64,000 nucleotides of DNA from Callorhinchus milii (taxonomy: Eukaryota), in NCBI RefSeq assembly GCF_018977255.1, contig NW_024704742.1:47742001-47806000 (forward strand). Direction: 5' to 3'. The notes below the pieces were generated by a model. That model ran no database searches. It worked only from the letters and a program-made list of their open reading frames with translations, and was not told the origin of the DNA. Made by a program: the position numbers and the translations under genes. Positions 11,385-62,970 of the stretch are shown here, piece by piece (the first letter of the stretch is position 1; every line of letters starts with the position of its first letter).

Positions 11385-11698
11385 TAATAATCCTTGCATT
11401 TGATATAGCGCTTTTCACGTTTTCTAGACGTCCCAAAGCACTTCACAGAATAGACTGTAAAGTGAATTGACTGTATATTTGTGAGCGAACGTGGCAGCCA
11501 ATTGCGCACAGCATTTTCCCACAAAGTCGTGGATTGAAAATGACCAATTTATTATTGTTTTGGGTTTTGAAGGGATTATTATTAGGCTCTGTGTGGAGTA
11601 AGGAAACTTGCCCAAGGTTTCGCCCTGACCTGCCGGGAATTGAACTCAGGTGTCTCACTTGCAGAGCGAGTGCTCTAACCACTGAGCTACAGGACTCC
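11385..11698 (-). mobile_element. Young tRNA-derived SINE, full length
   Basis: GGAGTCCTGTAGCTCAGTGGTTAGAGC head with A/B boxes, body, AAATGCAAGGA(TTA)n tail; near-identical to other copies. Confidence 0.93.
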
Positions 11699-15261: not shown

Positions 15262-16166
15262 CTAAAGCCAAAAAGTTAACTCCATGTGAAAAAATGCAAG
15301 GGTTTTATTTTAAAAAAACTTTAATGGTCTTCACCACAAGCTAGTTTTTAAAACTCAAAAGTGGTTCAAATCCCATTCACATTTTTACCCTAATGGAGCT
15401 ACAACCAATAGCTACAGTCAAATTCAGTACACAAGACCTGGAAATTTCGCTGCCGATCCTCCTACACTGAAGTCGCCCATCACTGAGCCGAGATCAAACA
15501 CCAGGCCTGCAACTTCCTGCAACTTCCTTAAAAGCTAATTCTTTTATTTATATTTTGCTTCTCATCTTCCTCCAGTCTTCTCCTTGCAGTGGCTCCTCTA
15601 TTATGTAACCATTCAGTTTTAGCCAACACAGGATTCCCTGATTGGGATTTCTCATTCCCATGACCATCTAACACGGGGATGTTCTTGCCAAGGATGGCTC
15701 GAAACTTGTGGTCTGCCCAGTCGCAACAAGGATCACTTCTTGATCAATTTTATATCAAGGTCAGTTTTACATTCTTTAATAATTCCATCCCTGCAATCTA
15801 CCGAGAACAAATCATTGTAAGCTGAATTATTATAGCACTTTATGCAAATTGCATCACACTAATTATTCTCAAATATTAGTGACTATTTCAGTAGGCAAAT
15901 ATGCCAGCTATTTTTTTTTGTCATTTTGACTCGATAAACAGCCACGAGTTGAACAACCAATTTATCTAGAGGATCATTTGTATACCAGCAAAAACTCTCT
16001 TTTCCAGTATATCATGGGATCTTTATCGCCCACCTGAATAAGTTGGCAAGACCTGTTTAACCATCTCTGAAGGACGGCACCTCCAACACTGCAGCACCTC
16101 AAACCAGCCCTGGACTGGATATCAGCCTCAACTTCTTTTCAGTGGTCTTGATCATCAGTTACTCAC

Positions 16167-16265
16167 CAGCTTAATATCTTTCTTGGCACTTTTGCCATCT
16201 TTCTTGGCCTGATCATAAGTCATTGATTTCTTATCTGCACACCACATGGTAATATTATGCAAAAC
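16167..16265 (-). CDS. RFC1: RFC1 exon 19
   Basis: ttctag| ... |gtgagt; VLHNITMWCADKKSMTYDQAKKDGKSAKKDIKL. Confidence 0.96.
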
Positions 16266-16494
16266 CTAGAAAACACAACAAGACCACAGCTTCAAATACA
16301 AGGCAGACCATTCCAGCATGTGAATGTGCATGATGTGTGCTGGAATGGGGACAGAGGGCACTGGAAAATAGCTTAAAACTAAACTCTTCAGACCCAGTAC
16401 ACTTCAATGCTTATTGAAAGAATTTTGAAAATGAGACATGAGCTTAATTCTGCAATCAACAAACACCCCTTTCCATTGGTTAATTACATAATTA

Positions 16495-17415
16495 AGCACT
16501 GTATTTAAGATTATGAATATTTTGATAAGGTGGATGTTAATAGGCCGTTTCCATAAGTTGGCGAGTACAAAAGAAGGGAACATGAATATGTAAGCTCGTT
16601 GTACACATGATTTACATATGGTGAGCAGATCTAGTATTGTGCAAAACCTAGAAAATTAAATTTTTCTCTTCTACGCATCTACCTGCTGATTACTAATAAC
16701 CTGCACATCGAGGCTTCCTTTTAAGAAGGAATTAGTTGCCTCTAAATATCTGAAGTCTTACAATTTCTGCTTGTAAAAGATAATTCTATTTTCTACAACA
16801 ACATCTTCCTACAACGCTTGGCTATGGACAGAAGTGCCATAGGTCAGGCACTACAGTGCTGAATATACAAATATCTTTTTTTAAAGTGTTATTTTGATCC
16901 TAATAGCATTTGTGTGTGAGGTACCAATAACCAGGCATATTAGGATGAGTAATAAAGATCTAAAAGGGGGTTTAGGAGGAACTTCTTTGTGCAGAGGATG
17001 GTGCAAATATAGAACTTGTTGACAGAAGTTCTGGTTAAAGCAAAAAAGCGTTAAATCATTTACAACAACAAAATTACATTTGTAAAATGCCTTTCATTTC
17101 AAGAGGACGTCCCAAGGCGCTGGACAGACAGAGTTTTGGACCCGAGCTGGGAGTTGGGGAGGATGGAGGGCAGGGGCGGAAGCAGGGAGATCGAAGGCAC
17201 GGTTGAAGAGGAGGGTCTTGAGATGCGTCTTGAAGGTGGCGAGGGAGGGGGCGAGACGGAAACTTAAGAGGAAACTTGATGCATACAAGGGAATACAAGG
17301 AAATGGGAGTGCTGGAGGCTCATGCAGAGTATAAAGTACTGGAAGCTCATGAAGAGTATAAACACCAGCATGGATTAGTGGGGTTGAATGGCCTTTCTCC
17401 ATGGTGTATAATTCG
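16495..17415 (+). mobile_element. CR1 3' relic split by two insertions (16598-16950 and 17063-17250)
   Basis: CR1 ORF2 end motifs resume after each insertion; ends with the GAATGGCCT...TGTA-type 3' UTR. Confidence 0.7.
17063..17250 (-). mobile_element. L2 3' fragment inserted in a CR1 relic
   Basis: FKTHLKTLLFNRAF remnant and tail; CR1 sequence on both sides. Confidence 0.85.
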
Positions 17416-17743
17416 GTTACTATGCATTTCCAGTTGTACACGATTTACATATGGTGCACAGCAGACCTCACTATACAAGCTACCTGGAAATAATCGCTTC
17501 AAACACAAAGGACAAATGACTGGCCCTCAAAATAACACATTGTACAAAATTCAAATTGAATTTGCTTTTAACATCCTATGATGGGTATATAAACTATGCT
17601 TTCAGCAGGACGTTGATTATAGAACATATTCCCACACTCGTAGTATGTAAGAGTTGTGATGTGGGGTCCAGCCCATTCAAGGGATCATCTCAACACTGAA
17701 CACTAATGCTAATTATTTGGGATGCCAGGATCTGGCCACGAAC

Positions 17744-17839
17744 CTGTCTGATATCCTGATTGGCTGCAAGGATAATTTCATTCATGGCTGGAGGAGGAAT
17801 CTTCAAACCTTCTTTATAAGCAACAGTCATCATGGCACC
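17744..17839 (-). CDS. RFC1: RFC1 exon 18
   Basis: ctatag| ... |gttcgt; GAMMTVAYKEGLKIPPPAMNEIILAANQDIRQ. Confidence 0.96.
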
Positions 17840-18724: not shown

Positions 18725-18991
18725 TGTAGCTCCGTGGTTAGAGCACTCGCTTTGCAAGAGAGAGAACTGGGTTCGATTCCCGGCAGGGTGAAACCTTGGG
18801 CAAGTTTCCTGCTCCACACGCCTGATAATAATCCCTCAAAATTGATCATTTCAATCCACGACTGTTTGTGGGACACTGCTGTGCGCTATTGGCTGCCGCG
18901 TTTCGCCCACAAATATACAGTCAATTCACTTTTACAGTGTATTCTAGAAGGCGTGAAAAGCGCTATATCAAATGCAAGGATTATTATTATT
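18725..18991 (+). mobile_element. Young tRNA-derived SINE (first 7 nt missing, short 3' internal deletion)
   Basis: Same family; preceded directly by an L2 3' tail. Confidence 0.9.
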
Positions 18992-19081
18992 AAATGTGCA
19001 GCAACTACCAGGCACCACATCAAAGCGTGGCAGCAATGCACTAGCACAGCCCAACATAGGCATTGTGGTGTCTGCAGATAC

Positions 19082-19196
19082 CGTAGTAGAAGCCAGTGAT
19101 GGTGGTGTTGTTCAGTGACTCTGCTACCACTTCCTTCAAGCTGTTTTTGCTCCGGGTGTCACTGGCGTTGAGTTCAACGTAGCTGAATCCCAAATT
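19082..19196 (-). CDS. RFC1: RFC1 exon 15
   Basis: gaaaag| ... |gtatct; NLGFSYVELNASDTRSKNSLKEVVAESLNNTTITGFYY(G). Confidence 0.93.
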
Positions 19197-20214
19197 CTTT
19201 TCAGGAAGAAAACAAAAGGGAAGGAAAAACGAATGCCACATGTATTACAATGTTACAAAATGCCAAGTAGCATGAGAAAAACAAGACTTAAGAAAAAGTT
19301 ATAAGCTTCCAATAATTTTGTTTCCCTCGAGTTTGCATTCATTGATTGACTTCAGGTTTGATACTCATGTATCTCTGACGTTTAAATTAACCTAATCCAG
19401 TAAGCAGACACAGGCCAGTGCAAAGAGAGGGCACGGCAACAGGTTGTCCTAAAGCAACATGTTATATTATGAAATGAGTTGGCATTGAATTTGTGTCTTC
19501 TACTCATCTATCTGTTGATTATTAATAACCTGCATATCAAGACTTCCTTTAAAGAAAGAATTAGTTGCCCATAAATATCTGAAGTCTTACAATTTTTGCT
19601 TATAAAAGCTATTTCTATTTTCTATGACAGCATCTTCTTACAACGCTTGGCTATGGACAGAAGTGTCAGAGTCCAGGCACTACAGTGCTGGATATACAAA
19701 TATTTTTTTTTAAAAATGTTATTTTGATCCTAATAGCAGGTACCAACAACCAGCCCTATTAGGATTAGTGAAATAGTGCTGGGATCAGTAAGGCTGCGAT
19801 GGGAGAGTGAGTTTATTTAACACATCCATCTCTAAAAGTAAATTAATCTGTTATTTTACAAGTAAGCAAATGCAAGTTCATCTCGTATCTTATCCCATTT
19901 CCAAACATTTGCAGAGATAAGAGATGTGAAGTTTCATTCGCTAGATTGTAACCAGCTCATGTGTCCAGATATCAGATTGGATTCGAGATATTCAAACCAT
20001 TAAATATTTGCTTGACCAATATTTACAGTCTTCTGTTAATTGTGTACTGTGCGTTAAGGAGGAACATTAATAAATACAATGTGTTTTATAAAAGCTCTTA
20101 ATGTAACAAAGCACTGCAGTGACATACAACCGTGACAGAAGGCCATCAAGAGTTCACTGCATTAAAGGTGGTGCTAATATTAGGCTTGTATCTCTGGAAT
20201 TTATATTCTCTTAC

Positions 20215-20324
20215 CATACAGACGAGAGTGGCTGTGGTGGTTTTCCCCACACCAGGAGGACCAGAGAGTAGAGCAGCTTTGGAACTTGAACCATCATCCC
20301 TTCCGCCAAACCTGTGAAACTTTG
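20215..20324 (-). CDS. RFC1: RFC1 exon 14 (Walker A)
   Basis: gtacag| ... |gtaaga; KFHRFGGRDDGSSSKAALLSGPPGVGKTTTATLVCM. Confidence 0.96.
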
Positions 20325-20786
20325 CTGTACAAATACAAAACAAATTTTATAGCGCGTTATCTCAAAACGTCACACAATTATACTGAGACGTATGGCTGTT
20401 ATTGGCAACCACAACATGTGCCAGCTCCATCACATAAACAGCAAATATAAGAACAATCAATGAATTTGGTTGCATTTTGGCCATAGGGGGGAGAGGCCAG
20501 CCAGGACCCGGGGGGGGGGGGGAGAGGAAGGGAAGATCAGTCCCTTTCCTTTACTTCCCTATTCCCCTCTGCCTCATGTATGCATTGTTTCCTCTTCAAT
20601 ATTCTGATTAAATAACAAAGGTAATAAGGGAATATGAAAAAAATGCAGGGAAATTAGATTGAAAATAGAAAGAACTGCGTTATCTAATAAAATAGCAAAA
20701 AGGCTCAAACAGACGAACAGCTTACTACCATTTGTTATGGAGCTGCCCCAATAGGTCAAGCTCAGAGAAAGGTTTTCTATCCTCAC

Positions 20787-21192
20787 CTATAGGCTTGTTG
20801 CCCCCAGAGTTGTTCCTATGCCAGTCCTTCAACCAGCGGAGCAGCTTGTTGGCACAGCTCTGTTCCCCTTGTTGTCCTATGATATTTTTCAGGGCTGTTG
20901 GCTTGTACTTATCCACCCACAGCAAGCTCGCTTCTTCCTCCTTCGCTGACAGCTGAGAGGCACTTGCTGTCTTCAGCCTTGATGTAGAGGCAAAGGGTTC
21001 TGCACTGAACGAGATGCTCTTCACACCTCTCAAAGAGTTGCCATTCTCTCGTGTTGGAGGACTGCTGGTTGAAGGGCCGTCTTTTTGATGCTCACTCCAT
21101 TTCTTTGAGGGTGTTGAAACCTTCACATTGCGTGTGGAACTTTTCCCCGATACCTTGTTTCTTTCCTCTGAAACTACTTTCAATTTTTTAAC
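20787..21192 (-). CDS. RFC1: RFC1 exon 13
   Basis: ttacag| ... |gtgagg; VKKLKVV...LLWVDKYKPTALKNIIGQQGEQSCANKLLRWLKDWH...NKPI; 406 nt fits flanking phases. Confidence 0.93.
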
Positions 21193-21389
21193 CTGTAATT
21201 TGTTTGGGTTTAGGAGGGGAAAAAAATTGTGATCCATCAAGTTGTCACTGGAGATATCAGATAAACAGATCGCGGGTGCTGAAAACACTCTTGTTGGTGA
21301 TCTTGATATAGGTGTTGATTAACTTACACACAAAGTCAAGAAGCAACAGGTAAGACCCCAAATGTCCCCACATTCAGCACCAAACTAAC

Positions 21390-33199: not shown

Positions 33200-33540
33200 A
33201 GATCACAAGATCAGTCTGGATGAAGATGTCGTTCAGCCCTTCCGATTTCATCCCTATTTAACACCCATCCACCAGGAATGCATCAAGCTGCTCTTTAAAT
33301 TGAGTCAGGTGTACTGGCCTCTGCCATCTTTCCTGACAACCTTTCTCCAGTTATTGATAACCCTCTGTATAAAGAAAAAATCCCAATATCTATCTTGAAA
33401 TTACCCTTTACAGCTCTAAACCTATGTCCTTGTGCTCTACTGTCTTGATGTAAAGTATGGATCTAGGTTTACTTTTTCAATTTTATATTGTACAACTCTG
33501 AGCTCCCTTCAGTCGTCTTTTCGCAAGAATGAAAAGACAA
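33200..33540 (-). mobile_element. CR1 3' relic
   Basis: Reverse-strand RTRG...FF.QRVI motifs and 3' UTR. Confidence 0.65.
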
Positions 33541-36500
33541 GCACGCTCACTCCAGCACAGAAAGAGAGAGACACACACTCACATAGAGACACTCACAAAC
33601 ACACACACCCCATACACACAACAGTGGGGCCTTCGACTGAAGCCCATTTGTCGCTTGCCCCACACCGTGCATGCGCTTCCAGAACCGCCCCATCCACAGT
33701 GACGTCAGGTAAACAGCCAGGAGGCCCGCGGGTCACAAACTACATTTATAGCAGGGTTGTAGCAGACGTGGGTGTTTTAGCGGATTCCGCAGAGAAAGTG
33801 TGACCGCACTTTTCTATTGGCCCAGCTCATAGCTCATTCCTCAAACACCGGGGATCATCCTTTTTCCTTGCTCATAAAATTCTGCCTTAAATCCATCAGC
33901 TCTCAATTAGCCTGAAACTTCCTGAGATAACTTTAACCTCTCTCATAACCTTAGAGCTGCCAACTTGAATACAAAGCTGACAGTTGTACTGCTGTTCTTT
34001 GTCAGAAAGCCTTTGCTGGTTCTCAAAACCTACCTTCCATAACTTCTGTCAACAACAACTTGCACTTATATAGCGCCCTCCGTGCAAGGTAGCGTCTCAG
34101 AGCGCTTAGCCTCGTGTTTCAATTGTCACATCTGGTAAAGAGAAGGCTGACTATTTTGGCTCACTTTTCTTGAGCTTCAATCAAATTCCTGCTCGATTAG
34201 AAAAAAAACTGGTTTAAGCAAATCCCAATCAATTTCTGGCTTGCATTTCCACTTCACATGCACGTCTGAGCACGAGTGTCTCAATGCCAGTCACCAAAGG
34301 GCCCCCACCAGCATTTGGGAACAGAGAGTCCATTCAACACAAAAACAAGCAGATTATCTCACCACGTGAATCATCTGCCACATCCTAGCGCAGCCTCGTC
34401 CCATCTCTCCACCCGCAACTCTTACAATGCATTGCGGTCTTCTTAATACTAAATCACAGCTTCAAACAATGAGCCAAGTTGCACACAACTCTGTATTAGG
34501 CTTCGCTAGTGCTTTCCTTTGCTAAGACGAAGGTTATCCTTTACGATCTGGAATACGCTGCCAGAAGGGTGGTGGAAGCAAATTCAACAATAACTTTCAA
34601 AAGGAAATTGGATATATACTTGAAAAGGAAAAATTTGGAGGCTATGGGGAAAGAGTGGGGGAATGGGACTAATTGGATAGCTCTTTCAAAGAGCTCAAGT
34701 AGCCTCCTTTTGTGCTGTAAGATTCTGTGATTCAACACACTTATGTCCCCCCTTCTCTTTTTCCTAGTTTGCACACACATACACCACACACACAAAAGTC
34801 CATTAAAGACCATTGACTCAAGATACTCCAGAACATCCATATCGAGTATCATTTGAGCATGACATGTGACTTCCAGTTCCTCACAACTCAACCGCAGAAG
34901 GTCCAATAACCCAAATGACATTTTCCAAAGCTTTCTGGATAACATTCTGCAAATTGAAATGTCATCTCAATTACAGCAGAGGCAGAAAGTTTTACAACCG
35001 GACTTCTGATAAAACCATAGTTTACAGCCCACAAATGACAGTGGTACTTTTGAGTTAGTGAGTTACAGCAGAAGCTTTTTGTTATCTAGAAGCAGCAACA
35101 TTTTAATGTCCACAGGCCATACAGCTACCCACATTGGCACTGATGTTATTCAGTTTACTTTAAGGACTGGTAAGCATTAAAGGTAAAAGCTCCAGAGTGC
35201 TTGGATGAACATGCTTCCAACAGAAACCTAGCACCAAGGTCAAGGCTTTGCACTTGTAAATGCACAAGGTATCGGAGCTCCATGAGATTACTTTTACTGC
35301 ACTTATCTCTGAACCGGCCAGAGCTGCCCATCTGTCCTCAGACCAACATACAGGGAAAATACAAATCTTTTGATAATATTAACTTTGACTCAACATAATT
35401 CCCATGTCATGCTAATGAATGTCATGCATCATGAAAACAATAATTTTCTTGGACAGAATCATAGAATGTTACAGCGTGGGAGGGAATTTGGTCCTTTGAG
35501 GATGCACAAACTCTCATAGCAAGTTGCAGTATCAATCCTAAGACCCTGTCCTTTCCAGTTCCTGGGCCAGGTGGGTCCGCAGTATTCCAGGGCACTGCTA
35601 ATGACAGCACAGCCGGCCTGGCTCATTGGCAGGACCTGGAAGGGCAGACCAGTAACTGGGGGCAAGGAGTCATCCCACTCGTCTCCTGTTAACCATGCAT
35701 GCCAAAGCCCTAATGAGTTGGGTGGTCCTAGCTCGACAAACAGCGGGAAAGCTTGCCGATCAGCAATATCAACGGCAAGCTATGCAGTTTTAACTGGTTA
35801 GACTCCAACAGCATCCCAACGCATACTCTGGGGAGCCCAGGCCTTGGCTCTTGCCAACCTGCGCCTAATACTTTCCAGAATTAGGTAAGCAGGAAGTGTC
35901 CCTCCAGGGAGAGAGTGCGCATTCCATTCCAACAACCTATCTCTGGGATTTCCATGTGTAGGTGGGATGCATGGAAAACTCAGCTTGGCTAATCTTAAGC
36001 ATGGTGATGGGCTTCCGCATGTGCCAGACACCTGGCTGACCCCCCAAAAAGTATGTTTATCCAATTCCCTTTTGGTTGCTATGGTCTGCAATGGTTTTAA
36101 CCTCAATACTCGTTTGAGGCAAAGCCTTAGATGTGCTGTTCTCAGCCCAGATGGCATAAGGTGCTACAATTGGCCATGGTGACCCTCTCAGCCATGATGC
36201 ATTTTCAAAAAAAAGTATAGTCTGTTTTTATTCCTGTGATTGTAAATAAAGAGTGTAAAGATCGTAAATAGAGTGTGTAAATCTCTTCTGATCTGCATTA
36301 ATCAGCTGTCTAAAACAACAAGATTACATTTGTATAGCGCCTTTCACGTCGGAAGGATGTCCCAAGGCGCTGGACAGAGTACAGAGTCTAATCCACTACA
36401 CGGACCATATTTCAGCAAAGACCAGCTGGTCCAGCTTGACAAGAAGCCGCTTCAGAAACCGTCCCAACATCTCAATTCTAAGGTGCGCCAAGGTGATATC

Positions 36501-37924: not shown

Positions 37925-38246
37925 TAATAATAATAATAATAATCCTTGCATTTGATATAGCGCTTTTCACATCTGGAGGACGTCCCAAAGCGCTTCACAG
38001 AATACACTGTAAAGTGAATTGACTGTATATTTGTGGGCAAACGCGGCAGCCAATTGCGCACAGCAATGTCCCACAAACAGTCGTAGATTGAAAATGACCA
38101 ATTTATTATTGTTTTTAGTTTTGGAGGGATTATTATTAGGTGTGTGGAGTAAGGAAACTTGCCCAAGGTTTCGCCCTCTGCCTGGAATTGAACTCAGGTC
38201 TCTCGTTTGCAAAGCGAGTGCTCTAACCACTGAGCCACAGGACTCC
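37925..38246 (-). mobile_element. Young tRNA-derived SINE, full length
   Basis: Same family. Confidence 0.93.
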
Positions 38247-44917: not shown

Positions 44918-45224
44918 GGAGTCCTGTAACTCAGTAGTTAAGAGCATTTGCCTTGCAAGCAAGAGCCCTGGGTTCGCTTCCCGGCAGGGCGAAACCTTGG
45001 GCAAGTTTCCTTACTCCACACGCCTGATAATAATCACTCACGAAAAAAAAAATTGGTCACTTTAATCCACGACTGTTTGTGGGATACTGCTGTGCGCAAT
45101 TGGCTGCCGCGATTCACCCACAAAATATACAGTCAATTCACTTCACAGTATATTCTGTGAAGCGCTTTGAGACGTCTAGAAGACGTGAAAAGCACTATAT
45201 CAAATGCAAGGATTATTATTATTA
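44918..45224 (+). mobile_element. tRNA-derived SINE, full length
   Basis: Same family, slightly more diverged. Confidence 0.92.
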
Positions 45225-57236: not shown

Positions 57237-57449
57237 TTGCCCAGGAGTTGCCCAGGCGTTGCCCAGGAGTTGCCCAGGCGTTGCCCAGGAGTTGCCCAGG
57301 AGTTGCCCAGGCGTTGCCCAGGCGTTGCCCAGGAGTTGCCCAGGAGTTGCCCAGGCGTTGCCCAGGAGTTGCCCAGGAGTTGCCCAGGCGTTGCCCAGGC
57401 GTTGCCCAGGCGTTGCCCAGGCGTTGCCCAGGCGTTGCCCAGGAGTTGC
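57237..57449 (+). repeat. 11-bp minisatellite (TTGCCCAGG[A/C]G)x19
   Basis: 19 units, perfect except for one biallelic position. Confidence 0.97.
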
Positions 57450-57554: not shown

Positions 57555-57810
57555 CATAGATGTTACGTAGATTGTACAGCACAGAAATAGGCCGTTCCTC
57601 ACCATTAGTCATTGCCAGTGTTTACACACAAGTCTCCACCCACTGCTGACACCCTCCAATATCCCTCGATTCCCTTCTCCCTCACGTGTACATCCAGCTT
57701 CCTCTTAAATGCATCTATGCTGTCTGATTCAACCACCGCTTCGGGCAGCGAGCTCCACGTTTTCACTACCCTTCACTTGAAATAGTTCCTTCTATACTCT
57801 CTTTTAGGTT
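57555..57810 (-). mobile_element. CR1 3' relic
   Basis: Reverse-complement CR1 3' UTR (TACAGCACAGAAATAGGCC) and ORF end. Confidence 0.65.
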
Positions 57811-58323: not shown

Positions 58324-58629
58324 GGAGTCCTGTAGCTCAGTGGTTAGAGCACTCGCTTTGCAAGTGAGAGACCTGAGTTCAATTCCAGGCCGAGGGCGAA
58401 ACCTTGGGCAAGTTTCCTTACTCCACACAGAGCCTAATAATAATCCCTCCAAAACCAAAAACAATAATAAATTGGTCATTTTCAATCTACCACTGTTTGT
58501 GGGACATTGCTGTGCGCAATTGGCTGCCGCGTTCGCCCACAAATATACAGTCAATTCACTTTACAGTGTGTTCTGTGAAGCGCTTTGGGACGTCCTCCCG
58601 ACATGAAAAGCGCTATATCAAATGCAAGG

Positions 58630-60450: not shown

Positions 60451-61440
60451 TCAACAACAACATTTCATTTGTAAAGTGCCTTTTATGTTGGGAAGACATT
60501 CCAATGCACTGGACAGACAGAGTTATGGAACCAAGCTGGGGGTTGGGGTCAGGGAGGTTGAGTAATAATAATAATCCTTGCATTTGATATAGCGCTTTTC
60601 ACGTCGGGAGGACGTCCCAAAGCGCTTCACAGAACACACTGTAAAATGAATTGACTGTATATTTGTGGGCGAACGCGGCAGCCAATTGCGCACAGCAATG
60701 TCCCACAAACAGTCGTAGATTGAAAATGACCAATTTATTATCGTTTTTTTTCTTTTGGTTTTGGAGGGATTATTATTAGGCTCTGTGTGGAGTAAGGAAA
60801 CTTGCCCAAGATTTCGCCCTCTGCCTGGAATTGAACTCAGGTCTCTCGCTTGCAAAGCGAGTGCTCTAACCACTGAGCTACAGGACTCAAGGTCAGTGGG
60901 GGAAGCAGGGAGATCGAAAACAAGGTCGAAGAGGAGGGTCTTGAGATGGGTCTTGAAGGTGGCGAGGGAGGCGGCAAGGGGGAGGGACTGCGGGATGGAG
61001 TTCCAGAGGGTGGAGCAGAGTGGGGACGTGAAGCAGGCCGGAGCCCGCTGAGCGGAGGAAGAGAGCAAGATGGTAGGGGGTTAGAAGGTCGCAGAGGTAG
61101 GAGAGAGCAAGGCTATGAAGGGCATTGAAGATGAGGGCCAGGATCTTGAACTGTATCCTCCATGTGATGGGAAGCCAGTGGAGTTGGGCAAGGATGGGGG
61201 TGATAGGGTCACGGAGCCTAGTGTGGGAGAGGACATGGACTGCAGAGTTCTGGATGATCTGCAACCTGTGAAGGGAGGAGTTAGGGAGGCCGACAAGCCA
61301 TGAGTTTGCATAGTTGAGCCTCGATGTAATGAAAGCGTGTATGAGGGTTTTGGTGGCCTGCGATGTGAGACAGTACGGAGCCGTGCGACTTTGTGGAGGT
61401 GGGGGAAGGCAGAGCGGGTCATAGCATAGATTTGGGGTAG
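60451..61440 (-). mobile_element. L2 fragment interrupted by the SINE at 60563-60888
   Basis: QIIQNSAVHVLSHTRLRDPITPILAQLHWLPITWRIQFKIL; WNSIPQSL...FKTHLKTLLF. Confidence 0.9.
60563..60888 (-). mobile_element. Young SINE, full length, nested inside an L2 LINE
   Basis: L2 sequence continues on both sides. Confidence 0.93.
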
Positions 61441-62624: not shown

Positions 62625-62970
62625 GGAGTCCTCCAGCATATTGGTTAAAGCAATCGCCTCGCAAGCGAGAGGACCCAGGTTCGATTCCCGGGCAAGTTTC
62701 CTTCCTCCACATGCCTCTGTTTACCTAGCAGTAAGAGAAATCCGTTTGTTGGTCGATTGGTGCATCGCTTTCCAGGGGTTATAATTCCTTCAAAAAATAA
62801 TAATAATAATTTGGTCACTCAATCCACGACTGTTTGTGGGACACTTCTGTGCGCAATTAGCTGCCGCGTTTCTCCCACAAAATATGCAGTCAATTCACTT
62901 TACAGTATATTTTGTGAAGTGCTTTGAGACGTCTTGACAACGTGATAAGGCACCATATTTTTGTTATTAT
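62625..62970 (+). mobile_element. Older, longer subfamily of the same SINE
   Basis: tRNA head plus an extra internal segment of about 60 nt (62717-62778) absent from young copies. Confidence 0.85.

Follow-up and report, generated by a model that had tools for sequence, protein, structure and literature searches.

Repair-mediated duplications (RDs) have been described by Pace, Sen, Batzer and Feschotte (2009), whose text reports 1,136 interrupted transposons, found by the same logic that is followed here (PMC2671141). As far as that text sets them out, the criteria for an RD are the following: two transposon fragments in the same orientation lie at least 50 bp apart, with their consensus positions within +/-30 bp of each other; the inserted sequence has one other genomic match; the distance to the donor exceeds 50 bp and stays below 5 kb; poly(A/T) is absent; the breakpoint carries microhomology, a deletion or filler; and the orthologous site is empty (PMC2671141). 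The same text counts 824 proximal human RDs (donor <5 kb, maximum 619 bp) and, among the 1,136 cases, 20 two-donor chimeras, five of which have a second local donor; RDs are also reported there from chicken and zebrafish (PMC2671141).

Other described classes involve more templates, shorter patches or more distant donors. The account of Osia et al. (2021) includes human germline MMBIR/FoSTeS insertions that draw on three to five templates (PMC8421209), and insertions made by polymerase theta are described as often being patchworks, generally shorter than 25 bp (PMC12426944). The class 2 templated sequence insertion polymorphisms (TSIPs), as their source presents them, have distant donors, and an RNA origin has been inferred for them (PMC5110952).

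Here, we describe an insert that is located in an old CR1 relic, within a window of 64,000 nucleotides, i.e. the whole stretch of Callorhinchus milii DNA that has been analysed. Our literature search returned zero matches that join the elephant shark to templated insertion, which does not imply absence from print. The insert, at 16598-16950, sits in intron 18 of RFC1, and the donor of its longest piece lies in intron 14. The gene is identified by the exon at 20785-21279 (minus strand), which matches chain A of the PDB structure 6VVO (E 1e-17) and is 99% identical to the Callorhinchus milii RFC1 model P0001; mapped on the window, P0001 gives 24 coding blocks, all of them on the minus strand. 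Our exon numbers count an ATG-only exon 1, which we assume on the model of human RFC1, and the numbering of exon 19 and of introns 14 and 18 given in an earlier, sequence-only reading of this DNA is right on the same count. P0001, a UniRef model, begins inside the block 48993-48847 with a few extra residues; we suspect that the true start of RFC1 may be a tiny exon upstream of this block, as in human. The coordinates of the insert, its donors, the CR1 and the neighbouring exons are listed in the table.

Table. Features of the insert, its donors, the interrupted CR1 and the flanking RFC1 exons (positions in the window).
Feature	Position	Strand	Remarks
RFC1 exon 19	16167..16265	-	P0001 residues 818-850
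Donor of B	16250..16273	+	RFC1 intron 18/exon 19 junction
CR1 left arm	16490..16599	+	ORF2 C-terminal coding remnant, ending shortly after the R-G-H motif; 5' limit approximate
Piece A	16598..16632	+	direct copy of 17433-17468; first 2 nt common to the CR1 arm
Piece B	16632..16655	+	direct copy of 16250-16273
Piece C	16655..16950	+	direct copy of 19484-19769, intron 14; 296 nt
CR1 right arm, first part	16951..17061	+	R-R-N-F-F region of ORF2
High-copy repeat	17062..17260		nested in the CR1 right arm; depth >2e5, many matches in the window
CR1 right arm, second part and 3' end	17262..17425	+	aligned to relic 57570-57810
Donor of A	17433..17468	+	starts ~8 nt past the CR1 3' end
RFC1 exon 18	17744..17839	-	P0001 mapping
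Donor of C	19484..19769	+	RFC1 intron 14

The comparison of the window with itself has revealed that the insert is tiled by three direct local copies, which we refer to as A, B and C, with zero untemplated bases. Piece A aligns with its donor over 38 columns, with 32 identities, one mismatch and five gap columns (blastn E 5e-4), so that it carries one mismatch and two indels relative to the donor. Piece B is identical to its donor at 22 of 24 positions, with two mismatches (E 2e-3), and contains the last 8 nt of intron 18, including the acceptor AG, followed by the first 16 nt of exon 19. Piece C shares 252 of 285 aligned bases with its donor (88.4%, E 1e-93), and has 11 extra nucleotides at 16908-16918 as well as a 1-nt indel; its divergence of 11.6% (K2P 0.127) is made up of 21 transitions and 12 transversions, and a comparison of the direction of substitution between the copy and the donor was uninformative. 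The matches proposed in the sequence-only reading are recovered: the pairing of 16598-16632 with 17433-17468 stands at 32 of 38 columns (E 5e-4), the 20 of 21 nucleotides claimed at 16635-16655 are the inner part of the longer alignment of 22 of 24 at 16632-16655, the 85-90% identity with an 11-nt indel that had been judged for C becomes 88.4% with the indel at 16908-16918, and all three pieces are direct relative to their donors. Measured from the break, the donor of B is located 326 bp to the left, while those of A and C are located 482 and 2533 bp to the right; should the nested repeats be younger than the scar, the latter two distances shrink to ~280 and ~1,990 bp. At 17441, a CpG base in the donor of A, sample X10 differs both from the window and from sample X11, so that the donor of A is polymorphic.

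Rfam identifies zero families in the insert or in its donors, and C is therefore not a catalogued RNA gene; the seven Rfam matches in the window (tRNA) are the heads of tRNA-derived SINEs, at 11625-11696, 18725-18785, 38178-38240, 44920-44992, 58326-58393, 60821-60883 and 62635-62691.

For the two short pieces, the role of chance has been assessed with 733 non-repeat windows of 58 nt, with 20% of the analysed stretch masked as repeat and each search extending over +/-3.5 kb. The score of B (at least 38) is reached by five of the 733, three of which are pieces of the event itself, and the score of A (at least 45) by two, one of which is the event itself; among 1500 dinucleotide shuffles of 16598-16655, one reached 38 and none reached 45. 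Both A and B fall in the single 58-nt gap that adjoins C. The matches of A and B are not due to chance.

The continuity of the insert has been examined in the contigs of two same-species samples, X10 and X11, which come from one study and are represented by contigs of short reads rather than by long reads. They are two of the four runs in which 75-79% of the sampled words occur; with the two runs of other organisms that are considered below, the analysis covered four of 19 listed runs. In X10, one contig of 922 nt extends over 16068-16989 with two differences and zero gaps, bridging all four junctions; in X11, the contigs 15993-16673 and 16797-16985 bridge three junctions under a 31-nt rule, and the B|C junction falls short of that rule (18 nt). 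The donor of C is spanned by contigs over 18972-20400 in two samples. The depth in X10 and X11, a proxy for copy number at 80% likeness rather than copy number itself, is 10.4 and 8.0 at C (16655-16805) and 12.8 and 7.6 at its donor (19524-19674), next to a single-copy depth of ~8-14 and ~7-12, respectively, and to 1e5-1e6 in SINE bins; within the 64-kb window, C has one other copy. At 80% likeness, C is not a repeat family, and the insert is real and inherited.

These data bear on the possibility that the structure is an artefact or a product of nesting, i.e. an assembly chimera, a dispersed repeat at C, or a tandem duplication of 16250-17468 that was subsequently trimmed by deletions. The A|B junction is, formally, the junction of such a tandem duplication, but the tandem route needs two deletions that restore the exact contiguity of the CR1, plus a separate capture of C. 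A dispersed repeat, one of the outcomes by which the sequence-only reading could have failed, is argued against by the single-copy depth and the same-species contigs, at 80% likeness; an assembly chimera, another such outcome, is argued against by the independent (short-read) contig of X10 across the insert, and misassembly cannot be the source of a copy that has diverged from its donor by 12%. This group of explanations has already been largely refuted, and we leave it hardly any probability.

We turn to the CR1 that hosts the insert. The peptide of a sister relic at 57570-57810 retrieved 403 proteins, of which the best 150 have been used; we take them, judging by their motifs, to be C-termini of CR1 ORF2. 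The right arm aligns with this relic across the nested repeat (E 5e-14), being identical at 67 of 103 positions (65%), and it is found both by a CR1 profile (E 4e-6) and, with tblastn, by 72 of the 150 proteins. The repeat at 17062-17260, which interrupts the right arm, presumably deserves an L2/SINE-tail-like label. The left arm is recognised by two of the 150 proteins, P0150 and P0155, at 16524-16583 (tblastn E 0.25 and 5.1), and was missed by the profile of 43 CR1 blocks; its depth is at repeat level (131 and 107, versus ~10; 1164 for the second part of the right arm), and DNA alignments with two distant relics are collinear and ~55-60% identical, with inconsistent local gaps.

The link between the two arms is provided by the spacing of two conserved motifs: RG[HNS] and FF are separated by 16 residues (48 nt) in 43 of 45 motif pairs, from 43 of the 150 CR1 proteins, and the corresponding motifs of the window, at 16575 and 16983, come to lie exactly 48 nt apart once 16600-16950 is removed. 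Both proteins that match both arms imply an insert of 351 nt, as observed, on a protein-level comparison and not on a DNA consensus. The earlier claim that a CR1 is interrupted by about 350 bp and resumes after 16950 holds in this form, with contiguous arms and an implied insert of 351 nt. Taken together, these observations show a single CR1 that was broken in two with practically nothing lost; this fixes the polarity of the exchange, with intron 18 as the acceptor.

Further CR1 3'-end relics are located at 885-1125, 33310-33536, 34545-34722 and 57570-57810, and have served as comparators. A 27-nt tandem duplication (89% identical) occurs at 17308-17361, inside the CR1 3' region, and a GC-rich tandem array with an 11-nt unit and 96% identity occupies 57237-57449. 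Other low-copy pairs of 70-75% identity (29145-29341/35836-36032; 23202-23272/24389-24460, inverted; 25042-25128/29290-29380) may represent local duplications of greater age, or else repeats that are rare. A candidate target-site duplication around the whole CR1 (16470-16490 versus 17427-17451) has been rejected, its score of 19 having been reached by 17.5% of 3,000 random windows. Scans with a CR1 DNA pattern found zero loci in viral contigs, two in prokaryotes and three in metagenomes, and the four loci that were read are unrelated chance matches; a word-based protein search with the CR1 relic peptide gave 22 candidates, none of which passed, and Pfam returned zero families for three peptides.

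The order of events can be approached through the wear of the CR1 relative to that of the copy. The conserved CR1 codons, which were drawn from a mixed protein set rich in bird-like sequences and two of which lie near an indel, have changed at least nine times over the 38 sites at which a substitution is detectable (24%), whereas C has changed by ~6% per lineage; the probability of nine in 38 is 6e-4 at 6.5% per lineage and 0.011 at 10%. The CR1 was thus already old when it was broken, and a CR1 older than the copy of C means that the scar was not formed during CR1 integration. During target-primed reverse transcription (TPRT), the target DNA is opened at the 3' end of the element, and the donor of A starts ~8 nt past that end, where such an opening would lie; the scar might, on this account, have been made as the CR1 integrated, either with A and its donor as a target-site duplication or through jumps of the reverse transcriptase across local DNA. 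This account predicts that the CR1 and the copy are of the same age, in contrast to the ~24% and ~6% per lineage observed, and the right arm is just 67/103 identical to its sister relic; the simple target-duplication version, moreover, makes the contiguity of the left arm a coincidence. We regard an origin at integration as extremely unlikely, and the proximity of the donor of A to the CR1 3' end is a coincidence that lies outside the reach of the model that we favour, i.e. the later repair of a break in an old relic.

The scar is old, as proposed in the sequence-only reading, with a copy-donor divergence of 11.6%, and it is present in both of the same-species samples examined. In the longest pieces from two further organisms, B and C, ~6-14% of positions depart from the window (8/136, 23/~340 and 43/~310), figures that include exons and are biased to conserved parts; this divergence is comparable in magnitude to the 11.6% that separates the copy from its donor. 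The holocephalan crown is dated to ~173 Ma and the Callorhinchus crown to ~15 Ma in the part of the literature that we cite (PMC11521621). If organisms B and C are other chimaeras, we infer that the insert may be about as old as the long Callorhinchus stem, which runs between these two dates. The depth of the organisms' samples at 16655-16805 is 25.6 in X6 (single-copy ~22-24) and 20.5 in X5 (single-copy 46-127), with the donor partly covered, which fits either a shared insertion or a single locus covered in parts; among the joints listed for organisms B and C, which are dominated by SINEs, an empty orthologous site was not seen.

The junctions of the insert show how its pieces are connected. 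The same 2 nt occur at both outer ends, being common to the start of the donor of A and the end of the donor of C, and the A|B and B|C overlaps amount to 1 nt each; the ends of the insert have zero poly(A) tails, zero long target duplications and zero extended flank homology. The overlaps of 1-2 nt would fit minimal priming, yet they are close to what chance gives, and they are read on sequence that has diverged by 12%. The event, in sum, inserted 351 nt with no net loss and with a 2-nt overlap at both outer ends.

We consider it very probable that a germline break in an old CR1 relic was mended by synthesis on DNA templates, with switches from one template to another. A double-strand break or a broken fork would have occurred in the germline, inside the old relic in RFC1 intron 18; the left end would have primed the synthesis of A on the right end's resected strand, while the right end would have invaded an intact duplex (sister or homologue) ~2-2.5 kb off and copied C. 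After C, the right end would have been released and would have primed the synthesis of B on the left end's resected strand, and the 1-nt A|B overlap would mark the place where the extended ends were joined. In a variant that is just as simple, the left end copies all three pieces one after another, from A through B to C. Whichever end made it, the order A-B-C calls for one piece from an intact duplex; with the two other pieces taken from the opposite broken end, the direct orientation follows automatically, and no RNA is needed. Drift would then have carried the scar, a neutral part of the intron, to fixation or to a high frequency. This repair would be an SDSA- or MMBIR-like event, with polymerase theta as a plausible author of the short patches. 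The template-switching origin proposed in the sequence-only reading is supported in this form; polymerase-theta joining alone, named there as one of its routes, is a poor account of the 296-nt piece C, copied from 2.0-2.5 kb off.

The scheme assumes a single event. A and B are too short for dating, and with the tenfold difference in piece size, this leaves room for two or more events at one site, e.g. a duplication of C followed by a later patch of A and B. Such a history requires repeated breaks at the same base, but the CR1 arms remain contiguous, every base of the insert is assigned, and the 8% divergence of B agrees with the 11.6% of C; we hold it to be very unlikely.

The uniform orientation had also been read as allowing for an RNA template, i.e. 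for a copy of RFC1 pre-mRNA made by a LINE reverse transcriptase. In the version that we have considered, the left 3' OH would be extended on the nascent, unspliced RFC1 pre-mRNA, with two jumps, by a reverse transcriptase, either LINE ORF2 or polymerase theta, which also has this activity. A span of 3.5 kb of the RFC1 transcription unit takes in the three donors, all of them in the predicted orientation, and CR1 and L2-like relics are plentiful in the window. RNA-derived patches at breaks are known, but the experimental patches described in the same source came from distant loci (PMC5110952). The orientation is a weak argument: it would arise by chance in one case out of eight, and DNA routes also yield direct copies. 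B, moreover, is an unspliced intron-exon junction, the insert has zero spliced junctions, poly(A) or long target duplications, and intron 14 would have to stay unspliced beyond the transcription of exon 19. According to the RD survey, 295 of the 824 human proximal acceptors are intronic, so that the class needs no transcript (PMC2671141). Nothing in the insert is specific to an RNA template, and we judge it very unlikely that RNA-templated repair, the earlier idea, took place here; that the insert is a germline-fixed record of reverse transcriptase repair, in cis, on the nascent unspliced RFC1 transcript is a correspondingly improbable conclusion. One locus cannot separate DNA from RNA templates; if the RNA reading were true, part of the proximal RD class in vertebrate introns would be RNA-templated.

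Piece B has brought a second copy of a splice site into intron 18. Read on the minus strand, it recreates the AG of the acceptor together with 16 bases of the exon, at a site that precedes the genuine acceptor by 382 nt, with 16647 as the first exonic base. The pyrimidine-rich tract is replaced at this decoy by purine-rich sequence with nearby AGs, an in-frame reading past the decoy reaches a stop after 11 codons, and three Callorhinchus milii protein models join exon 18 directly to exon 19, skipping it. To judge from these features, the decoy acceptor is likely to be silent. The insert shows no sign of function; under our favoured reading, DNA-templated repair of a break, it is an unremarkable product of a mutational process that is already known.

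The comparison with the known classes of templated insertion can be made feature by feature. Polymerase-theta end joining (TMEJ) shares with this insert the patchwork of small segments, the minimal priming and the direct copies from the opposite end, and A (35 nt) and B (24 nt) come close to its usual size; in contrast, C measures 296 nt, comes from a distance and exceeds the 25 bp below which such insertions generally stay, and one piece needs an intact duplex. The class 1 TSIPs, or LINE insertions, are marked by poly(A) and by target duplications of 5 bp or more, whereas here the overlap is 2 nt and there are zero tails. The class 2 TSIPs, which are reportedly the work of Onozawa and Aplan, are similar to the insert in that a break is patched by templated sequence, without target duplication or poly(A), but they have distant donors, whereas all of the donors here are located within 2.6 kb.

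The MMBIR/FoSTeS templated insertion (MMB-TI), like the insert, joins several local templates at microhomology with zero untemplated bases, the overlaps here being short and near chance. The yeast signature of MMB-TI, as its source describes it, is an inverted copy beside its template, whereas here all of the copies are direct (PMC8421209); furthermore, one donor is located 2-2.5 kb away, and the event, an ancient one, is shared by the two same-species samples.

Among the named classes, the insert fits the repair-mediated duplication most closely. A transposon is split by a local copy from less than 5 kb off, the size is under 619 bp and the donor is intact; microhomology is present and poly(A) is absent, and chimeric multi-donor RDs are known. 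In terms of the criteria quoted at the outset, the transposon is split at the protein level (351 nt, with a 48-nt spacing and a weakly identified left arm), the donors lie at 326, 482 and 2533 bp, and there are zero tails and overlaps of 1-2 nt across four junctions. The insert differs in having three local donors, where the text of the original survey describes two-donor chimeras (PMC2671141); a table of the same survey lists unassigned filler with lengths that reach at least 90 nt, in which pieces such as A and B might be concealed (PMC2671141), and the survey, by its own text, does not take in cartilaginous fish (PMC2671141). Repair scars of great age may stay legible in the slow-evolving genomes of chimaeras, and the filler in repair-mediated duplications can itself be templated: the insert in RFC1 intron 18 is a three-donor scar that is still legible base by base after ~12% divergence, in a lineage outside the original RD survey.
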